Below, piece after piece: positions 8,970 to 60,493 of a stretch of 64,000 nucleotides of DNA; the first letter of the stretch is position 1; each line of letters begins with the position of its first letter. The DNA comes from an uncultured Anaeroplasmataceae bacterium (GTDB taxonomy: Bacteria; Bacillota_I; Bacilli_A; Acholeplasmatales; Anaeroplasmataceae), in NCBI GenBank assembly GCA_948619685.1, contig CAPGOD010000002.1:1-64000 (forward strand). Reading direction: 5' to 3'. The translations under genes were made by a program, and so were the position numbers. Below the pieces are notes generated by a model. That model made no database searches. It was not told the origin of the DNA and saw nothing but the letters and a program-made list of their open reading frames with translations.

Positions 8970-10151
8970 TTAACCATTGTGCTTCAATAGATATTCTCTC
9001 GACACATTTTTGAAGCTCTGCTGTCCATCAACACTTCGGTATACGAACCCCTCTCTTTTTACCTTTGGATTGATTTCACTATACCCATCAGCTTCCAGCT
9101 TCATTTCTTCCATAGTCTTAGGCAACACATATTCTGTATCAGTAATTGGCACATTCTTTAATCCATTCTGTTCGCAGAATTTAGCCATATCTACGGCTCC
9201 AAGACGTACACCGTCAACAATCAGATTGAATACAAATAACTCATTCTCTTTCAGCTTATATGGATTACCTTGAACTGATCCAACACCCTCTCCTTGGAGA
9301 ACCACTCTGTTATATCCATTCTCCATAGCAAACTTAGTCAAAATAATTTCAATGCCATACTTATCTGCCAGCTCCCAATAGATATTTGACTCATGATATG
9401 TTTCCTGATTTCTATCTGCCTGTCTTACATTTCTACTACAAACAATAAACTCAAACTTATTCTTCTTGATTCTGTCTACAGCAAATGTGCAGCTTGTTCC
9501 ATCTAATTTTTCTGTCTTAATCCACTTATTAGTACTTTCCAGATAAAACGGAGCATTCTCAATTCGTGTTTCGTCTGTCTTAACAATCCACTTGGGAAAC
9601 TCTTTCGGATTATCTTTCTTCTTGCCAAAGAACAGGAACATGATTTTTCTGCCAAGTTTATATCTCATAATCTTTCGCACAAATGGTCTACTAAACAGCT
9701 TCTTGTGTCTCTGAGCCATAGATTTATATTTTGCATCTGGATCTACGTTGTTGGACTTTCTCTTAACATCTTCTTCACAAGAATAAGTAATTTTAAGACT
9801 TTCAGTCACGTCCGATCCAATAGCATTATCACTCAACTCTGGAAATAATGAAATCGGGAGTGCAAGTCCCTGACTAATAACCTTAAATTTCCCTAGCTTC
9901 ATTGTTTTTACCTTATAATGCTTTGTTGCTAAGAAAGCAAATCTTTCATCAGATTCAGGACATTTACTATCAATTTCAATGTACACGGCTAAATCTCCTG
10001 GCTTAAACTCTTCTTTCTTTGCGATACAAACCCATCCAAGGACTCCAATAAGTTCAATATTATCTGCTCCATCAATCGGTCTTACCCACTCAATTTTTTC
10101 AATATGTGCCAATGCTCTATCTGCCATATTAAATTTCTCCTTTTCTCTCAA
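8970..10151 (-). CDS. ATP-dependent RNA ligase (Rnl5/DraRnl-like) with N-terminal tRNA-binding-type OB domain
   Basis: KxDG nucleotidyltransferase motif KLDGTS; N-terminal VRPIDGADNIELIGVLGWVCIAKKEEFKPGDLAVYIEID resembles myf/tRNA_bind OB fold. Confidence 0.65.
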   Translation of the reverse strand: MREKEKFNMADRALAHIEKIEWVRPIDGADNIELIGVLGWVCIAKKEEFKPGDLAVYIEIDSKCPESDERFAFLATKHYKVKTMKLGKFKVISQGLALPISLFPELSDNAIGSDVTESLKITYSCEEDVKRKSNNVDPDAKYKSMAQRHKKLFSRPFVRKIMRYKLGRKIMFLFFGKKKDNPKEFPKWIVKTDETRIENAPFYLESTNKWIKTEKLDGTSCTFAVDRIKKNKFEFIVCSRNVRQADRNQETYHESNIYWELADKYGIEIILTKFAMENGYNRVVLQGEGVGSVQGNPYKLKENELFVFNLIVDGVRLGAVDMAKFCEQNGLKNVPITDTEYVLPKTMEEMKLEADGYSEINPKVKREGFVYRSVDGQQSFKNVSREYLLKHNG

Positions 10152-25284: not shown

Positions 25285-26520
25285 TTACGCTGCATTTATA
25301 ACTATAGGGGTTAGAACACCCTCTATCCCATATCGCTCATTGAACGCATTTGGGAATACCTTCATCATAATTTGTAATGATCCGTTTACATCACTATTGA
25401 TAAGCAATCCCGAGTTACTTCTAAACAACCCTCTTTCTATCCGTCTTGACTTATCGTAATTCTGTTTAATAGTTTCTTCTCCATCTAAGAAACTTGTTCC
25501 TGAAGAATAACTCTCCTCAGTTTCAATATATTTAATTCCAACATTTTCACATTTATATTTGAGTTGCTGTAACAACATCTGATAAGGAATACTCACAAAC
25601 TTCTGATTGCTTTGTTTACCCATATCTATACTCTGTTTCCATTCCTTATTCTTGCCAACAACCAAAGTATCAATGTCATTTTTCACACACCACTTCACTA
25701 CACAAGCACTTGCATTGTGCATATAGTTCTTGATCCTCTGATATCTTTTAAATGTAATAGAATCCAGTTTCTTAGACCAGTCTTTTCCATGACGTATTTT
25801 CAATAAAGATTTTTCTTTCGCCAATCGTTTGTTATAGTATTGATTGATACTTTTGATTCCCTTGCCGTTAATAATAATTGGATTCAAACCGATATTATTT
25901 GTCATAGTTACAAGATTATCTACACCCAAATCAATACTTGCTATGCGATTGCTTTCTGTTTTTACATCTGGAACTTCTGTTTCATAGACAATTTCCATTA
26001 CATAACAGGAACCTTTTGGAATAAATCTGACTTGAATGATTCTGCCAAGGCAGCGACATTTCCATTCATAATCATTAAGTAATCTGTTCCTGATATAAAC
26101 CGTTCCTTTTTCATAGTCATAGACCAACTGATTATTGGGAATCATCCAAGGAAACCTACCGTCCTTTTTTAAATACTTTGGCAACTTAGGCATACCAAGA
26201 TATTTTGACGGATTATTCTTCCAGTCTTTTATTGCTCTGAAATAGGATTTCCAGTTTTTATCTAAAACTCTTAGAGTACAATTCGCTGGTTGACTGAATG
26301 TAAGTTTGTAATTTTCGTGTGTCTTAAATTCAAAATTCATTTTGTTATATGATATATATTCTCCGTTATTTATGAATTTCTGTCTTATTTCATAATTTGC
26401 TTCATTGTAAAGATTCTTAGAATGAAAACACTGTTGATCTATAACTTTGAATTTTGGATGATTCTTTCGTATGATTATTTGCTCACGCCTTTCTACTTTT
26501 ATTTTTTCACCTCCAATCTT
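25285..26520 (-). CDS. tnpB: TnpB-like (IS605 OrfB / RuvC-like) protein, solo, with degenerate RuvC-II and no zinc-finger cysteines
   Basis: RuvC-I is ASIDLGVDNLV. The position of the usual VIEDLN reads LVVGKNKEW. The usual YTSQ.C..CG...C..CG reads ESYSSGTS...RSNSG. The C-terminal block is INSDVNGSLQI. The frame stays open 58 codons upstream of the first ATG (KIKVERREQIIIRKNHPKF) back to a TAG, with a GGAGGTG RBS but only ATA/ATT as candidate starts. Confidence 0.55.
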   Translation of the reverse strand, partial: KIGGEKIKVERREQIIIRKNHPKFKVIDQQCFHSKNLYNEANYEIRQKFINNGEYISYNKMNFEFKTHENYKLTFSQPANCTLRVLDKNWKSYFRAIKDWKNNPSKYLGMPKLPKYLKKDGRFPWMIPNNQLVYDYEKGTVYIRNRLLNDYEWKCRCLGRIIQVRFIPKGSCYVMEIVYETEVPDVKTESNRIASIDLGVDNLVTMTNNIGLNPIIINGKGIKSINQYYNKRLAKEKSLLKIRHGKDWSKKLDSITFKRYQRIKNYMHNASACVVKWCVKNDIDTLVVGKNKEWKQSIDMGKQSNQKFVSIPYQMLLQQLKYKCENVGIKYIETEESYSSGTSFLDGEETIKQNYDKSRRIERGLFRSNSGLLINSDVNGSLQIMMKVFPNAFNERYGIEGVLTPIVINAA

Positions 26521-27314: not shown

Positions 27315-27548
27315 TCATTTCCTTTTAAGTTTCTTATATAAATTATCCCAAAATATCGTCCATACTGCACACCAACAAACGAATAATCCCACATTAATAT
27401 CTGCGGTTTCCCATTTATTAATATAATAGATTACGATAAATGTTATGATGAAAATTAATCGAATTAAGTCTCTCAATTTATTACAATATCCAGTATATAA
27501 AGCAGGTGTTCCAGCTAATATAAATGAAAACAAAATATATTCCATCAT
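27315..27548 (-). CDS. small membrane protein
   Basis: 77 aa, two hydrophobic helices. Confidence 0.35.
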   Translation of the reverse strand: MMEYILFSFILAGTPALYTGYCNKLRDLIRLIFIITFIVIYYINKWETADINVGLFVCWCAVWTIFWDNLYKKLKRK

Positions 27549-28588
27549 TTTTCTCCTATAAATAATTTTTCTATATATCTATCCATCTCATATCCCAATT
27601 TCACACAATTGCCATGTGATATATGATTTTTCCAAGCATTGTAACTCTCATAAAATTTCTCTTTGCTAAGTTTTCCACACCTCACTAATCCAACCATTTT
27701 CTTAAATTTCTTTTTAGCGGCACGTTTATTTTCGTTCTTCAGCTTTCGGATTACTTTACCACCTGAAGTCACATATGTATGAAAACCACAAAATTTGATT
27801 CCATTTTTAAAAGGAATGACCTGAGTCTTACTGTTTAATTCAAGACCTAATGAATACACAAACTCATAAATAGCTGCTAAACACCATTTCGCATATTCTT
27901 TATTTGGCACTATCAAATAAAAATCATCCATATATCTACCATAGTATTTGACGCCGAGTTCACCAGTAATAAAGTGATCCAAACCTGATAAATATAGAAG
28001 TGCGAATACCTGACTGATCTGATTACCTAAAGGAAGTCCTAATCCCTCTGTACTATTAATAAACTTCTCACATAACCAATATACATCCTTATCTTCTATA
28101 AAATAACCCACAATAGCTTTCAAAATATTATGGTCAATATTATAAAAGAATTTACTTATATCAGCTTTTACAATCCAACAATCATATCCATATTTTTGAT
28201 ATGCAAGAAACATTTGCGCTCTCAAACAATCCAAACCATACAGTGTACCTTTACTAATCTGGCCAGCATAATTCGTTTGAATAAATTCTTTATTAAATTT
28301 TGGAATCAATACATTATCACACAAACTATGCTGAATAATCTTATCTACAAATGAACACGACTTAATGACCCTTTCTTTTGGTTCATATATTGTAAATTCA
28401 TTATATTTAGATACTTGATATGTCTTTGTTTCTAATCTTCTTTTTATTTGGTGAATGCCATCAAGAGCAACTACTTGAAACTTCTGGCTACTTTTTGAGA
28501 ATCCTTTACTTGACTTAGATTTTAAGTATGCTTGATACAAATTGCCGAAATCTATAATTTTTCCAAAATCTGTTTTATCTTCTATCAT
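27545..28588 (-). CDS. diversity-generating retroelement reverse transcriptase
   Basis: RT motifs are IVKADISKFFYNIDH, LPLGNQISQVFALLYL and YGRYMDDF (YxDD). LPLGNQISQVFALLYL has SQ instead of SP in motif 4, as in DGR RTs. Size is 347 aa. TR, avd and a VR-bearing target lie adjacent. Confidence 0.8.
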   Translation of the reverse strand: MIEDKTDFGKIIDFGNLYQAYLKSKSSKGFSKSSQKFQVVALDGIHQIKRRLETKTYQVSKYNEFTIYEPKERVIKSCSFVDKIIQHSLCDNVLIPKFNKEFIQTNYAGQISKGTLYGLDCLRAQMFLAYQKYGYDCWIVKADISKFFYNIDHNILKAIVGYFIEDKDVYWLCEKFINSTEGLGLPLGNQISQVFALLYLSGLDHFITGELGVKYYGRYMDDFYLIVPNKEYAKWCLAAIYEFVYSLGLELNSKTQVIPFKNGIKFCGFHTYVTSGGKVIRKLKNENKRAAKKKFKKMVGLVRCGKLSKEKFYESYNAWKNHISHGNCVKLGYEMDRYIEKLFIGEK

Positions 28589-28707
28589 AATATTTTGTTC
28601 CTTTGTATTTATCCTGGCATTTTTGATTCAGGAAAGGTTGCCTATTCTTTTGAAATCGGGACTCTAATTTCAGTGTTTCTCTTACTCTCTTTCGTCTTCC
28701 GATCCAG

Positions 28708-28790
28708 AACGGGCGGACACCTTTGTCATAGTCACAGTGGTTGTAGTTCACGTTGCCATCAGAGTTGACATACTGAACATAGTGGCCATA
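28708..28790 (-). repeat. DGR template repeat (TR)
   Basis: ~83 bp nearly identical to 29327-29409. All ~20 mismatches fall at plus-strand T, which is coding-strand A. The track ORF 28575-28793 is just this repeat read through. Confidence 0.7.
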
Positions 28791-28807: not shown

Positions 28808-29176
28808 TTATCTTTCTTTATCTTTTGAACGCCATGCAATACTCATGTATTTCACATCATTTATTTGTTTCTGCCAATATCCAACTGTATCACTTCCAAT
28901 CAAATTAAGTTTCATAGAAAGTTCCACATAACAGGATAGTTTATCACAGCACGAAATTGCTTTTGTTTGCAACTCTTGGCGTTCCGATTTTGAAGTATCC
29001 AATTTCAGCCTATTTGCATCAAGTAAATATTCATATATATCCATACAGCGACTTTGGATACGTTTTACCAATGTCAAATGCTTAACTGGATACCTCTTTC
29101 GATTTGATGTAATTGTCATAGTATATTCCATAAGATTTATTGCTTTTACAATAACATCCAGTTTCGCTTCGCTCAC
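28808..29176 (-). CDS. avd: DGR accessory variability determinant (Avd-like four-helix-bundle protein)
   Basis: 122-aa basic helical protein located between target and TR, as in mtd-avd-TR-brt cassettes. Confidence 0.55.
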   Translation of the reverse strand: MSEAKLDVIVKAINLMEYTMTITSNRKRYPVKHLTLVKRIQSRCMDIYEYLLDANRLKLDTSKSERQELQTKAISCCDKLSCYVELSMKLNLIGSDTVGYWQKQINDVKYMSIAWRSKDKER

Positions 29177-29183
29177 TGGTTCC

Positions 29184-29326
29184 TCCGCTCCTTTCAGTCG
29201 CTCACCGGCAAGTCACGGCAAGGGCTTACGCCCTCGCCTGTTCCCTGGCCAACCCTCCATGTTCCGCAAGATAAAAAGATTTAAGATTATCCAATCTTTC
29301 GCTACGCTCAAGATTGAAGGATGAAA
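29184..29326 (-). repeat. GC-rich conserved 3' element downstream of DGR target stop codon (copy 1)
   Basis: >95% identical to 58175-58321; contains GCGAGGGC-GTAA-GCCCTTGC hairpin. Confidence 0.55.
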
Positions 29327-30075
29327 AACGGGCGGACACCCCCGTCACAGTCACAGAGGTTGCAGTCCACGCGGCCACCAGAGCCGACACACTGAACACA
29401 GCGGCCATCTCCTCTTTTGGGTGTCTGATTAGGTGTAGCAAGCCAATACCAGCTATCAATCAACGGAATACTTTCCCCAAATTTCATAAGCAACTGGATA
29501 TTAGGAATTGCAAGAATGTCTCCTTCAACTGTACCATAATCCTTAAGTCCATCCATAGATGTTAAATCGATTGAAATAGGAACAAGCCTATCACCAAATT
29601 CTTCCTTTAATCCAGCAACCAAATCACTGTTAACAAGCTCATCGCGCACATAAGACTCTGCATAATTATTTGTTTTACCAAACTCTGATTTTTTTAGAAT
29701 CCCATTCATAAAGTAATATGTACATTCTCCGTCCTGTACACTTGTCCAATAATAGCCACAAATAAATTTTAAATTCTTCTTCCACTCTTCCATATACTTT
29801 TCAACTACATCTCTAAAATCTTGTTCATACCTTTCTGGATCTTTTTCATACCAATCAGGTACAATGTCCTGATCGACCTTATATCTCCAGTTTTTTACAT
29901 CTGTCATTTTATCACCATTTTGCGGAATCAATTCTGCTCTTACAAATGTTTTTGTTGCATTCATACGATTATCTTCAATACCAAGACTATCCAATAAATC
30001 TGAATGACTTTCATTTCCTTCTGGCGCTAAGACCACTCTGTTCTTCAAAATAACTCCACTCTTAAAATTACACAT
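29308..30075 (-). CDS. DGR target protein 1 (C-terminal variable region)
   Basis: 255 aa; VR ends 5 codons before stop; C-terminus paralogous to 58293-58943. Confidence 0.65.
   Translation of the reverse strand: MCNFKSGVILKNRVVLAPEGNESHSDLLDSLGIEDNRMNATKTFVRAELIPQNGDKMTDVKNWRYKVDQDIVPDWYEKDPERYEQDFRDVVEKYMEEWKKNLKFICGYYWTSVQDGECTYYFMNGILKKSEFGKTNNYAESYVRDELVNSDLVAGLKEEFGDRLVPISIDLTSMDGLKDYGTVEGDILAIPNIQLLMKFGESIPLIDSWYWLATPNQTPKRGDGRCVQCVGSGGRVDCNLCDCDGGVRPFFILQS
29327..29409 (-). repeat. DGR variable repeat VR1 (C-terminal codons of target 1)
   Basis: Aligned to TR with substitutions only at coding-strand A positions; encodes ...RCVQCVGSGGRVDCNLCDCDGGVRP. Confidence 0.7.
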
Positions 30076-32814: not shown

Positions 32815-33237
32815 TTACCATTTAATGCCAATCATTTTATAAAAATACATAGCTGCCTTCCCATTTCCACCTTCATGGTTATAACCAATACAACCAATCA
32901 ATGCTGAATCCAATGATGAATAAGAAATATTAATGTCTTTATAATTGATATATCCATGATAATGAACTTTCCTATCGTCTTTAATTGCTTCCACAATTTG
33001 ATATTCTCCGACACAATGAATTTTAATAACTTCTCCCCAATGATACTCTCTTCTTATCAAATCAAGTTTTTCATCATGCGTTGCTTCTCTAACATCATTT
33101 TCAGTTATTGCTTTAAGTCTTGAAGTAGAATATATTCCATAATTACAAGGCAAAAATCTCATAACCTCTTCATTATCATAATCTGTTAAAACGGTTCCAA
33201 CTTCATCTTTATATATAACAATATCTCCACTTTTCAT
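32815..33237 (-). CDS. hypothetical protein
   Basis: 140-aa ORF. Confidence 0.4.
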   Translation of the reverse strand: MKSGDIVIYKDEVGTVLTDYDNEEVMRFLPCNYGIYSTSRLKAITENDVREATHDEKLDLIRREYHWGEVIKIHCVGEYQIVEAIKDDRKVHYHGYINYKDINISYSSLDSALIGCIGYNHEGGNGKAAMYFYKMIGIKW

Positions 33238-34112
33238 TATACCTCTCCCGCATTCACAAACCGCTCAATATATTCCCTGCTCTCTCCCTTGAAAATCGGA
33301 ATGTTTTTATCTATAACACAATGACTTCTAATGGGACACAAATCTATAGACTTTTGTGTTTTGTCAAGATAATTCTCCTTAAACGCACAACTCCCACGTT
33401 TCTGATATGTAGGAAAGTCATTCCAGTTAATTCCCTTCTGAGTCACAAGCATATCCTGAATATCATTGCAGGATTTATTCTGCAATTCCTTATGGCTGAA
33501 ATTTGCTTGTCCTACCATCTGAATACTGTTTTTGGAAGCGTCTAATTGTCGCCAATAGAAGTAATTAGTTACTTCTTCTCTTGGAATATTGAAAACTCTA
33601 GCATCAAACATAGCACCCATCTTTAATGCTTTAGAATATGTATTTTCCAATTCTAAAAATGAATCATCAACTTCGTCATAAGTGCAACCTAGATTCCAAT
33701 CTGGTAAATTTTCTTCTCCCCATTCGTCAAAATTATCTGCAAAATATTTATTAAAAGCTAATGTTGTCATACTTGCAGAAATACTGCACATTTTCTGAAT
33801 TTCATAATCAAACCATGCAGAAGTTTCAAATCTCTGGTAATCAATCAGCAACAAGGAAATCTCGTCTGAATGAGTATAGGCTAATGAGCAGCCTTGTATA
33901 TTCTCACATAAATACTTTGCTGTTTCCTGCATAGTTTTTATAAGAACATCGTCAAACGGCCGTTGGAAACCTCTGGTAAAGGTATGGAATGCCTTACCGT
34001 CAATCCTAATCACAACTGGCGTTCTTCTCATAAGTCTTGTTTTAGGAATCTCCTCATAAAATGTTTTCATACGATTCCCTAAATCATCTCTTTTCATCTT
34101 TTTATCGCTCAT
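33237..34112 (-). CDS. Thg1-like protein (tRNA-His guanylyltransferase-like 3'-5' polymerase)
   Basis: TPVVIRIDGKAFHTFTRGF...AYTHSDEISLLL matches the Thg1 N-terminal palm signature. Confidence 0.6.
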   Translation of the reverse strand: MSDKKMKRDDLGNRMKTFYEEIPKTRLMRRTPVVIRIDGKAFHTFTRGFQRPFDDVLIKTMQETAKYLCENIQGCSLAYTHSDEISLLLIDYQRFETSAWFDYEIQKMCSISASMTTLAFNKYFADNFDEWGEENLPDWNLGCTYDEVDDSFLELENTYSKALKMGAMFDARVFNIPREEVTNYFYWRQLDASKNSIQMVGQANFSHKELQNKSCNDIQDMLVTQKGINWNDFPTYQKRGSCAFKENYLDKTQKSIDLCPIRSHCVIDKNIPIFKGESREYIERFVNAGEV

Positions 34113-57878: not shown

Positions 57879-58166
57879 TTAAAAGGACTTTTCAACATTT
57901 TCCCTCTTTTCTTCCCACATGGTTCTAAATCTTTCACTCGCTGCAGCCCTCTGCTCTTCGGACATTTGTTTAGGTGGACTTATTTTTACATAGCTCACAG
58001 GTATATGTGCAAAAATAGATCCGTCCTTATTCTCCGCCAGAATTTGTACATCACTTGGATGTTTCTCTGCTAATTTATATAGTTTTGATTTTAACGCAGA
58101 CCCAGATGGTGCTGTGACACTAGCATATTCAGCACCTCTAATCCAATCTATTGCAAATTCATTCAT
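57879..58166 (-). CDS. hypothetical protein
   Basis: 95-aa ORF. Confidence 0.4.
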   Translation of the reverse strand: MNEFAIDWIRGAEYASVTAPSGSALKSKLYKLAEKHPSDVQILAENKDGSIFAHIPVSYVKISPPKQMSEEQRAAASERFRTMWEEKRENVEKSF

Positions 58167-58174
58167 TTTATTTT

Positions 58175-58321
58175 CCGCTCCTTTCAGTCGCTCACCGACA
58201 AGTCACGGCAAGGGCTTACGCCCTCGCCTGTTCCCTGGCTAACCCTCCATGTTCCGCAAGATACAAAGATTTAAGAAACTCTTTCGCTACGCTCAAGATT
58301 GAAGGATGAAAAACGGACGCA
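58175..58321 (-). repeat. GC-rich conserved 3' element downstream of DGR target stop codon (copy 2)
   Basis: >95% identical to 29184-29326. Confidence 0.55.
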
Positions 58322-58943
58322 CGCCCCCGGAAAAGTCACACCTATTGTAATTCACGTAGCCACCAGAGAAGACGCACTGAACATAGCGGGCACTCCATCC
58401 TGATAATGTCGAATCTGGAGTTACAAGCCACCACCAGCAATCCAGATTTGCACCAATTATTTTTCTATACTTTCTATATTGGTCGATAGTCAAAATGCTT
58501 ACTTTGTCTATGCTTGTCCCATAGTCATCCAAACCATCCAACGACATTAAATCGACAGTATGCTCAACAATCCTATCCTTGCCAAATGTATTTTCAATTT
58601 CCCCTAAATATGTTCCATTCAGAAATCCTCTCAGACTACTTGTTTTCCAGTTGTTATCGGAGCCAAACTCCATATCATCTTCTAATACCTCTTTTCTGAT
58701 AACCGCTGTACGATTTCCATCAAGCTGTTCTAAGACTATGTATTCGACATTATTAACCTCAAATATCTCCCCTTGACTTAATGATAGTAAATTAATATCC
58801 TCTTTTCTTTCTATAACAATCTGGATGTTCTCATCAACATTGTTGATAGTTACATTTAAATCCTTCTCTACTTTATTGACTACATTTATTTTCTTACACA
58901 TATTATTTTCCTCCACATCTTTTTCTAAAAAGGTACATTTCAT
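58293..58943 (-). CDS. DGR target protein 2 (paralog of 29308-30075, remote from RT)
   Basis: C-terminal ~90 aa paralogous to target 1; identical GGVRPFFILQS* ending. Confidence 0.6.
   Translation of the reverse strand: MKCTFLEKDVEENNMCKKINVVNKVEKDLNVTINNVDENIQIVIERKEDINLLSLSQGEIFEVNNVEYIVLEQLDGNRTAVIRKEVLEDDMEFGSDNNWKTSSLRGFLNGTYLGEIENTFGKDRIVEHTVDLMSLDGLDDYGTSIDKVSILTIDQYRKYRKIIGANLDCWWWLVTPDSTLSGWSARYVQCVFSGGYVNYNRCDFSGGVRPFFILQS
58322..58395 (-). repeat. diverged DGR variable repeat VR2 (remote target)
   Basis: Aligns to TR over ~80 bp with ~12 mismatches at T positions and ~10 at other positions; encodes ...RYVQCVFSGGYVNYNRCDFSGGVRP. Confidence 0.55.
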
Positions 58944-58946
58944 TGC

Positions 58947-59624
58947 CTATTTCATGATTCTTTCAATGTCTTTTTCTATCATCTTATAAGACTCTTCAAT
59001 ATTTCCGTCAAAGATATATTTTACAAAATCATTTTGTGCTTTAATTTCTTTTTTACGTCCCAAATTGCAGATTTCAAATTTTTCTGGGCTTTCATCAAAC
59101 TGCACATCTCTAATCTCATTACCAAATTCCCAAAAAAGTCCATAAGTCATTACCTGATCTAACTCAAAAGCATTTACAATGTCTATAGTTTTCCCTCTCA
59201 TTTTCATAAACCATACAGTGTTTTTAAGTGCTTTCATTTCACTATATCCTTTACGATTATGCAGAGCCAGCAGCCGATACCGACATTCTCCCTCCCATTT
59301 CTCTTTGTTAAATTTCTTATCCATGATATTGTAAATTTGTACTGTATCTCCCATTCTTCTATCAAATTCAGCATTCAACTTATCCTTGAGAATTTTCTGC
59401 TGTTCATATGGAATATTTTCATACAATTCATAATCAAATCCAAATTCCGATACAACCGTTGCCATATCTCGCAATTCATCAAAATCCAAAATAGACATAT
59501 CTATATTTGTTTTCAATCCTTCAATTCCATACTTTTTAATTACTCTTGCTCTTGCATCTGCAATTACATCTTCTCCTGCCCATTTAACAAATTCAGGTAT
59601 ATTGTTCATAGCATTTTCCTCCAA
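58947..59624 (-). CDS. hypothetical protein
   Basis: 225-aa ORF. Confidence 0.4.
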   Translation of the reverse strand: MEENAMNNIPEFVKWAGEDVIADARARVIKKYGIEGLKTNIDMSILDFDELRDMATVVSEFGFDYELYENIPYEQQKILKDKLNAEFDRRMGDTVQIYNIMDKKFNKEKWEGECRYRLLALHNRKGYSEMKALKNTVWFMKMRGKTIDIVNAFELDQVMTYGLFWEFGNEIRDVQFDESPEKFEICNLGRKKEIKAQNDFVKYIFDGNIEESYKMIEKDIERIMK

Positions 59625-59647
59625 TCTTTTGTCTTGAAATGCGAATT

Positions 59648-60493
59648 TTAACTACTTACCTTCACCAAAGGTTCTATTCTTTTTCTTCCAGTTGTTTTTC
59701 CTTGTCTCTTTAACAATGCTGACACTCTGTTAAAAGTTTCCACATCAATAATAGATTCATAATCCCCTTTATATATTTCTCCAAGATATATATTGAATCC
59801 ACAATATTGTGTACGTGTAAGAATCTTCTGGACAGACCATGCAGTAGGCTTCTTTCCCCTTTTCCCTCTAAATCCGCGCTTATTTGCTTCACAGGCAACC
59901 TCTGATAAATTCTTCCTTAAAAGATATTCAGTAAAGCAGAAACGAACATATTTAGCTTCCTCTTCATTGATTTTAAATGAATCTTTTCCATCTAAATCAT
60001 ATCCAAGAATTTCTGAACATGTCCGTTTTCCCTGTGAAGCTCTCTCAGCCATAGCAGCACTTACACGTTCGCTTGTTAATTCTCTTTCAAGTTGTGCAAA
60101 TACTCCAACAATCCCAATCATAGCCCTTCCCATTGGAGTAGAAGTATCAAATGCTTCTGTGTAAGAGACCATATCAATATTCCACTCCTTAAATTTTTCC
60201 ATTGTGGAATACAGATCTGACACACTTCTTGTAAATCTACTCAACGCCCAAAATAGGACGATATCAAATTTTCGCACCTTTGCATCTTCCAAAAGTCTAT
60301 TCATGTCTGGGCGGTGTTCAATATCTTTACCAGAAATACCTTTATCAGCATACAGGTCAAAAATCTCATATTTTCGATCATCACACCACTTTCTAAGCGT
60401 TTTTTCTTGTGCTTCCAGAGAATAACCTTCTTTTGCCTGGTCTAAGGTACTGACTCTAATATAAATTGCAATTCGTTTATTCTCCTTTGTCAT
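59648..60493 (-). CDS. serine recombinase (resolvase/invertase catalytic domain plus part of a recombinase domain), short at 281 aa
   Basis: IAIYIRVSTLDQ catalytic-Ser motif. Confidence 0.7.
   Translation of the reverse strand: MTKENKRIAIYIRVSTLDQAKEGYSLEAQEKTLRKWCDDRKYEIFDLYADKGISGKDIEHRPDMNRLLEDAKVRKFDIVLFWALSRFTRSVSDLYSTMEKFKEWNIDMVSYTEAFDTSTPMGRAMIGIVGVFAQLERELTSERVSAAMAERASQGKRTCSEILGYDLDGKDSFKINEEEAKYVRFCFTEYLLRKNLSEVACEANKRGFRGKRGKKPTAWSVQKILTRTQYCGFNIYLGEIYKGDYESIIDVETFNRVSALLKRQGKTTGRKRIEPLVKVSS

Follow-up and report, generated by a model that had tools for sequence, protein, structure and literature searches.

A non-adjacent target of a phage-like diversity-generating retroelement whose variable repeat was probably written from another template repeat

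The 64-kb stretch of DNA analysed here (positions 1 to 64,000 of contig CAPGOD010000002.1, from an uncultured Anaeroplasmataceae bacterium; hereafter the window) carries a diversity-generating retroelement (DGR), all parts of which lie on the minus strand. The present analysis concerns a remote target gene of this DGR, target 2 (T2), and the variable repeat (VR) within it, VR2. T2 is a genuine non-adjacent target, rewritten by the resident template repeat (TR) in sister genomes. The VR2 allele of the window itself is static and departs from the resident TR at 10 sites where the TR has no adenine. This allele is probably an orphan VR, written from a lost or other TR variant whose donor is unsampled.

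Adenine-specific variation of T2 in sister genomes

A repeat finder returned one three-member family in the window, consisting of the TR (28701-28789), VR1 in target 1 (29320-29408) and VR2 (58305-58393). Mismatches were counted on the coding (minus) strand over an 82-nt core ending in ...CCGTT, which holds 22 TR-adenine sites and 60 other (non-A) sites. The DNA of nine sister T2 loci, with six distinct VR2 alleles, was compared with that of the window; fetched loci and target variants are cited below by L and P numbers. The sister gene bodies were 98-99% identical to the window's (5-9 of 508 nt differed). The six VR2 alleles varied at 19 of the 22 TR-adenine sites compared with 2 of the 60 other sites (Fisher p=1.5e-13), and each had 0-1 non-A mismatch to the resident TR. 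Moreover, the TR-type GC box was present in all of them, save for one C>T in L004/L005. As the sister alleles varied almost only at TR-adenine sites, the T2 locus is a genuine target of the resident TR in these genomes. The original prediction had described VR2 as drifted beyond adenine mutagenesis; as a property of the locus this does not hold, and the anomaly is that of one allele.

The protein clusters gave the same picture. The 90%-identity cluster of T2 contained 22 sequences, and the 15 listed members were near-identical outside the C-terminal block and differed exactly at codons with TR adenines. Members of the target 1 cluster also differed only at such codons.

Single non-A changes were seen in sister VR2 alleles that otherwise matched the TR perfectly, namely a T>C at index 19 in L001-L003 and the C>T in the GC box (index 73) in L004/L005. 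The former lies at the same silent site (TAT/TAC) that separates TR variants and the allele of the window. These changes could be remnants of partial conversion or errors of reverse transcription or integration.

The T2 gene and the DGR cassette

T2 (58293..58943) encodes 216 aa, although many callers start it at an internal ATG (58901), which shortens the protein to 202 aa. The protein belongs to PHROG 9958 (E=1e-38) and has a DUF6273 C-terminus (Pfam, E=3.2e-9), the match covering residues 155-216 and thus VR2. Its C-terminus reads ...SARYVQCVFSGGYVNYNRCDFSGGVRPFFILQS before the stop, and that of target 1 reads ...DGRCVQCVGSGGRVDCNLCDCDGGVRPFFILQS. The two proteins shared 46% identity across the C-terminal 127 aa (BLASTP, E=1e-29), and both fell in PHROG 9958. 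Together with the variation of VR2 in sister genomes, this bears out the original prediction of a second, non-adjacent target paralog about 29 kb from the reverse transcriptase (RT). The T2 family comprised 649 homologs of about 204 aa with a common hypervariable C-terminal block. In L019, a T2-type gene directly adjoins a TR, and in L018 one was found with no TR within 10 kb. A profile search of the PDB with T2 gave nothing significant, a single-protein search of IMG/VR gave no relatives, and the T2 region had no blastn match among GenBank phages. The AlphaFold2 model built from an alignment of 41 T2 sequences was unusable, with a predicted local distance difference test score of 45.

The cassette has the order target 1, avd, TR, RT on the minus strand, with the TR between avd and the RT gene. 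The RT (27545..28588; 347 aa; Pfam RVT_1, E=3.9e-14) is intact with a YMDD motif; its relatives adjoin TR-like repeats in about 546 cases in IMG/VR, and many sister contigs carry an RT protein identical to that of the window. The TR has its core at 28708-28789, with the 22 adenines in AAC, TAT and GAC codons. Its 3' end, of the type called IMH* after the initiation of mutagenic homing (IMH) sequence, is CTGGATC at 28701-28707, and the TR sequence was invariant across 11 sister cassettes. The accessory gene avd (28808..29176) encodes 122 aa and matched PHROG 3206, 'Avd protein of DGR' (E=1.9e-17). Target 1 (T1, 29308..30075; 255 aa) adjoins the cassette and contains VR1 at 29327-29408. Between the TR and VR1 there were 15 mismatches, all 15 at TR adenines and none at the 60 non-A sites. 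With a DGR-type RT, a TR and an Avd gene, as well as an adenine-only TR/VR1 pair, the cassette is a DGR by definition.

The duplicated module behind the variable repeats

The region behind VR1 (29184..29326) contains the 3' half of the IMH, AATCTT repeats, a hairpin (GGCGAGGGC-GTAA-GCCCTTGCC, 29217-29238) and a GAGCGACTGAAAGGAGCGG box before avd. A copy of this module, duplicated from the VR1 locus, lies behind VR2 (58167..58311). The first 33 nt after the core were identical between VR1 and VR2 at 32 positions, and past a short indel 103 nt (58174-58276 against 29184-29286) were 97% identical. These stretches fall inside the interval covered by the original prediction and were not mentioned there. 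Altogether, the two VRs are followed by about 140 nt of shared sequence, which ends at the ribosome-binding site of the gene downstream (avd at locus 1). After the GC box, both VRs continue with TTTTCATCC..., whereas the TR continues with CTGGATCGG..., which is the distinction between IMH and IMH*; likewise, the VR-specific IMH tail TTTTCATC... stands against CTGGATC... behind the TR. The T2 locus therefore has both an IMH distinct from IMH* and a downstream inverted repeat.

The only robust fold in the flank was the 9-bp GC hairpin with a GTAA loop (58207-58228 and 29217-29238). The flank as a whole did not fold better than its shuffles, as RNA or as DNA (z=-0.4 and -1.3). The hairpin was kept with differing stems in 14 related post-VR regions (GGTGCTGC/GCAGTGCC, GGAAAGTGTGC/GCACACTTCC and GGACTCTGGC/GCCGAGTCC), and RNAalifold found compensatory changes in five of eight hairpin pairs over the 14 related loci. 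A scan of the whole window against Rfam gave nothing at gathering scores; thus, the module is not a described RNA family. In Bordetella phage BPP-1, an IMH plus a hairpin are enough to make a heterologous gene a homing target (Guo et al. 2011, PMC3240598). On this ground the duplicated module may be what makes T2 a target, which would fit the sister-genome data.

Two further elements of the module were conserved in the DGR clade. Tandem AATCTT/ATCTT motifs directly behind the IMH were found in L013, L018, L019, L025 and L030-L050, and the GAGCGACTGAAAGGAGCGG box before avd was almost invariant across the post-VR regions of the clade. Directly downstream of T2, in the place that avd has at locus 1, lies a gene of 95 aa (57879..58166) without a Pfam or PHROG match. 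It was considered as an Avd-like gene and rejected, as BLASTP found no similarity to Avd. The 95-aa gene stood behind T2 in nearly all sister loci that extended far enough; in L002, avd was found there instead.

Mismatch pattern of the window's VR2 allele

VR2 of the window (58312..58393), 82 nt at the end of T2, aligned without gaps to TR 28708-28789. It differed from the TR at 23 sites, 13 of the 22 adenine sites and 10 of the 60 non-A sites; the adenine bias of the mismatches was still significant (Fisher p=5e-4). The departure from pure adenine mutagenesis noticed in the original prediction was accordingly real, and its count of about 10 among some 22 mismatches was accurate. The G>A and G>C changes that it placed near the IMH are the plus-strand view of coding-strand C>T and C>G changes in the GC box. 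This box reads GGTGTCCGCCCGTT in the TR and in VR1 (29327-29340) against GGCGTGCGTCCGTT in VR2 (58312-58325), with three non-A mismatches. With mismatches to the resident TR at 10 of 60 non-A sites, three of them in the GC box, the allele goes beyond the A-to-N-only pattern, minor exceptions allowed, by which Wu et al. (2018) define targets. No second template was found in the window: the resident TR was the best match with its 10 non-A mismatches, and the next matches had at least 15 and were chance matches rich in adenine. The likeness of the TR, VR2 and flank repeats is therefore far above chance.

All 10 non-A differences lay within 58317-58390, that is, inside the TR-homologous tract, and the flanks of VR2 (immediately upstream, and from CCGTT onward) were identical to those of sister genomes. 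Eight of the 10 changes were silent in the VR2 frame, namely six third-position changes at single sites and two that together turn the Arg codon CGC into AGG, a pattern that decay or adaptive point mutation does not explain. Furthermore, non-A divergence was 17% in VR2 (10/60) compared with 1-1.8% in the gene body (5-9/508; p=2e-7 to 4e-6), and the 3' flank diverged by about 3%. The comparison with the gene body excludes ordinary drift of VR2.

Template origin of the allele

Five of the 10 non-A states (index 3, 19, 70, 73 and 76) were those of a TR variant, TR-b, found in L037 from another metagenome, of which the IMH* tail and the start of avd were the same as in the window. The 14-nt GC box GGCGTGCGTCCGTT was identical in TR-b and in the VRs of L018, L031 and L034-L036. 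As the non-A states are mostly silent, half shared with TR-b and the rest private, the allele seems to carry the signature of a third, unsampled TR variant. It is this match to the signature of another natural TR variant that argues for a foreign template and makes an orphan VR the probable explanation. Among the three options offered in the original prediction (a lost second TR, a decaying target, or functional differences on the IMH side), the first came closest, as the non-A states were mostly silent and half of them belonged to another TR variant; its donor TR was not found.

The donor was sought in several ways. In a scan of 150 fetched loci (1.04 Mb), only the VR2 allele itself reached nine or fewer non-A mismatches, and no second TR was present in the approximately 5 kb past the window end or in any fetched flank. 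A pattern search of IMG/VR with IUPAC codes, in which the TR-adenine sites of VR2 were masked, gave 0 matches, and a guessed TR core, GTGAATTACAATNGGTGTGAC, also gave 0 matches. The anchored pattern GTTCNGTNCGTC...GGCGTGCGTCCGTT had one viral and seven metagenome matches, which led to TR-b (L037) and several VRs and to no exact donor. Among 80 related RT cassettes in IMG/VR, the best TR left 10 non-A mismatches.

A VR that fits a non-resident TR was found in a related cassette, L013 (L013:1-485). Its RT protein, TR and the sampled 5' end of its avd were identical to those of the window, and it adjoins a diverged ortholog of target 1. The adjacent VR had 11 non-A mismatches to its own TR; compared with TR-b, it had one non-A mismatch inside the repeat and two more at its 5' edge. 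Because this VR fits TR-b and not the identical TR that it adjoins, the L013 cassette and its target have recombined, and the VR is one that the former template wrote. The break point falls within the conserved post-VR module or immediately ahead of it. When VRs were judged by whether they fit a non-resident TR with adenine-only differences, the L013 VR did so; the window's VR2 shared five of its 10 states with TR-b, and no sampled TR accounted for all 10.

Another rearranged locus was seen in L011 (L011:1733-2614; P0143, 293 aa), where target 1 was fused to a TR. The 5' half of the repeat was VR1-like, the 3' half was TR with the IMH* tail, and avd was missing. The fusion either arose by recombination between VR and TR, with loss of avd, or is an artefact of a repeat collapsed in assembly.

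Stasis of the VR2 allele and variation of VR1

The protein of the window's VR2 allele was found identical on more than 20 contigs, and a variant differing by two residues (P0124) was found on another 20. The last 101 nt of T2 were nucleotide-identical in 20 fetched loci, 10 with P0124 and 10 with P0121, which came from several studies and represented two haplotypes. Allele turnover between samples or strains was not seen for this allele in the 20 contigs, and the allele is static. The neighbourhoods of the P0124 loci differed in the presence or absence of a resolvase, in a DNA polymerase III beta-like gene and in other inserts. VR1 differed between study groups sharing the VR2 allele: PRJEB18627 had the VR1 of the window (P0135-type), the ERZ148646xx group had a P0138-type VR1, and in SRR33517200 the 5' VR1 sequence was different again.

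The region upstream of T2 (58947-60493; L118-L127 and L141-L150) was highly mosaic among genomes sharing the T2 allele. A serine recombinase (59648-60493) was present in some and absent from others, a DNA polymerase III beta-like gene occurred in some, and small open reading frames (ORFs) were swapped. The gene of 220-225 aa just upstream of T2 was always kept.

In a sister lineage (L129, L130 and L131), codon 210 of the otherwise identical RT, shortly ahead of the YMDD motif, was changed from GAA to the stop codon TAA (E210*); this codon corresponds to about 27959-27961 of the window. The target alleles of this lineage are P0137 and P0122, seen on 20-27 contigs. The DGR here is dead, and this accounts for the repeated occurrence of the same VR1 and VR2 alleles. 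In addition, L002:3276-5233, which equals L131, had T2 joined directly to avd, the TR and the truncated RT. This layout may reflect a deletion of about 29 kb between the near-identical post-VR modules, acting as direct repeats, or an assembly misjoin.

Weighing of the explanations

In the mechanism that we favour, T2 is a true second target, about 29 kb away from the only DGR of the element (RT, TR and avd at 27.5-29.2 kb), and would be target-competent through the 3' module of target 1, namely a TR-homologous VR, the IMH and the ~140-nt flank with its GC hairpin. In sister genomes, the resident TR rewrites VR2 by adenine-mutagenic retrohoming. In the window, the allele would go back to a different TR variant and would have escaped rewriting ever since. 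Two routes may be envisaged. The avd-TR-RT cassette may have been exchanged by recombination, so that VR2 would be a leftover of the former TR, or the cDNA may have been supplied by a related co-resident DGR. The three GC-box mismatches would probably lower homing efficiency, and lowered homing would account for the fixed allele. It is plausible that these substitutions keep the allele from being rewritten.

Several points weigh against an orphan VR. Five of the VR2 states (index 43, 49, 50, 52 and 62) are private to the window's allele, and the best candidate donors (the resident TR, L037 and L041) leave about 9-10 non-A mismatches. Contigs with the T2 gene reach 120 kb, and the window may be about half of the genome. 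The original prediction had named an invariant VR2 beside a varying VR1 as evidence against it; the invariance was found in 20 contigs, and the variation of VR1 was seen by co-occurrence within studies rather than on the same contigs. In PRJEB18627, neither VR1 nor VR2 varied at the consensus level, and thus the exact strain gives no demonstration of DGR activity. Furthermore, if the sister genomes descend from the same GC-box-mismatched state, conversion still happened there.

A bolder version, in which the three silent substitutions of the GC box act as a heritable lock that detaches T2 from the shared TR and fixes a favoured VR2 allele across many recombinant phage backgrounds while target 1 stays diversifiable, or in which cDNA of a co-resident DGR cross-templates the target, must be considered rather unlikely. 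If it were true, target-by-target control of a DGR, or crosstalk between elements, would be testable with natural allele pairs.

Somewhat less likely is that homologous recombination, without reverse transcription, brought in a short segment of a divergent T2 allele carried by a related phage, and that the allele then remained static through its mismatch to the resident TR. The mosaic neighbourhood of T2 would suit such an event, as would possible anchors on both sides (GTTCAGT upstream and the near-identical post-VR module downstream) and the existence of T2 homologs with the same GC box (L018 and L031). However, the altered tract (58317-58390) lies wholly inside the 82-nt TR homology, which retrohoming predicts and recombination would produce only by coincidence. 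The sequence just upstream was identical to that of the sisters, although it differs strongly among divergent T2 alleles, and a donor allele was not found in the fetched loci.

It is improbable that a second cognate TR, in a second DGR or as an orphan TR, lies in the same genome outside the window and actively serves VR2. Several TR variants circulate in the clade, and with T2 contigs of up to 120 kb part of the genome is unseen. An active TR should, however, diversify the allele, which was invariant in 20 contigs from several studies with two haplotypes; neither the window, nor the ~5 kb beyond it, nor the fetched flanks held such a TR, and in sister genomes of this layout VR2 is served by the resident TR.

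Very improbable is the decaying target, which the original prediction had offered and which would have gathered ordinary point mutations after losing DGR input. Non-A mismatches are indeed present, three of them in the GC box, and decay of a DGR is known in this phage group from the RT nonsense mutation of the sister lineage. Against decay stand the excess of non-A divergence in the VR over the rest of the gene and the 3' flank, the confinement of the changes to the TR-homologous tract, the eight silent changes of 10, the five states of another TR variant, and the intact ORF, IMH 3' half and hairpin in a family conserved across 649 homologs. Finally, continued rewriting by the resident TR with RT misincorporation or integration errors is the least credible explanation: a survey did find non-A substitutions in 23% of its DGRs and as many as 11 in a single target (Wu 2018, PMC5758913), but the sister VR2 alleles and all VR1 alleles made by the same RT and TR have 0-1 non-A change, the changes in VR2 are mostly silent third-position states common to other TR variants, and the allele does not vary.

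Other features of the element

The window is a phage-like mobile region with genes for an RNA ligase, a CCA-adding enzyme, a Thg1-like enzyme, a methyltransferase, integrases and homing endonucleases; no structural genes were identified among the 20 window ORFs scanned against PHROGs. A tRNA-repair-type gene set (8970-12399 and 33237-34112) comprises the RNA ligase, the tRNA nucleotidyltransferase (CCA-adding) and the Thg1-like tRNA-His guanylyltransferase, and may serve as counter-defence against anticodon nucleases. About 1.2 kb downstream of the RT, at 25285-26340 on the minus strand, lies an IS605 OrfB/TnpB-like gene, a transposase according to PHROG. It was present in the window and in L012 and L015, where Pfam gave OrfB_IS605 and Cas12f1-like_TNB, and absent from L010, L013, L014 and L016, which had other genes there; it is an insertion polymorphism beside the DGR. 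The sister contigs came mostly from mouse-gut metagenomes, and one metagenome-assembled genome was labelled Coprobacillus sp.

Comparison with known systems

Many phage-associated DGRs have, besides an adjacent target, a second one that is non-adjacent but within 50 kb (Wu et al. 2018 NAR, PMC5758913), and two-target gut-phage DGRs with DUF6273 or C-lectin targets have been described, DUF6273 being a described DGR target domain (PMC11792537, PMC10743442). The original prediction had held that trans-targeting of a distant locus by a single phage DGR would be notable; in view of these reports, it is not new. The element of the window resembles such systems in its single RT/TR/avd cassette, in a second target about 29 kb off on the same element, in an AAC-rich TR, in a VR at a DUF6273-type C-terminus and in the adenine-only variation of both VRs in sister genomes. 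It is unlike them in that the window's VR2 misfits the resident TR at 10 non-A sites, so that the 'A-to-N only' rule would reject it. A survey applying this rule to non-adjacent targets would miss T2, though the sister genomes prove it to be a working target. For the many VRs reported with several non-A mismatches, the cause may often be an exchange of the TR cassette that left the old VR behind, and not RT infidelity or decay.

Compared with BPP-1, with its GC14 box, IMH and hairpin/cruciform, the arrangement here appears alike in sequence, having a GC-rich box in TR and VR, a VR-specific IMH tail and a downstream GC hairpin with a 4-nt loop and a covarying stem, and the whole module occurs at both targets. 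It differs in the position of the hairpin, about 85-100 nt behind the GC box and not immediately behind the IMH, and in the additional conserved AATCTT repeats and GAGCGACTGAAAGGAGCGG box. For the identity needs of the GC box, a natural allele series is available: the TR-matched VR2, the one-mismatch allele (L004/L005), the three-mismatch allele (window), the orphan VR1 (L013) and the dead-RT lineage.

A close counterpart of the window's VR2 is the remote target of Treponema denticola SP32, which corresponds to a TR type that is not resident and has been interpreted as a leftover (Nimkulrat et al. 2016, PMC4891356). Both are non-adjacent targets with a VR that seems to derive from a different TR variant than that of the resident cassette, and the SP32 target was explained as the remainder of a DGR whose parts had been replaced or lost. 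The SP32 target differs in that it lies on a bacterial chromosome, has a known alternative TR and has 19 of its 21 mismatches at adenines, whereas the element here is phage-like and its donor TR is unsampled. Moreover, in contrast to SP32, sister genomes here demonstrate rewriting of the T2 locus by the resident TR. Both non-adjacent phage targets and leftover VRs have thus been published before, and the present case adds population evidence, in which the same locus is live in sister genomes and orphaned here, together with the example of cassette exchange in L013.

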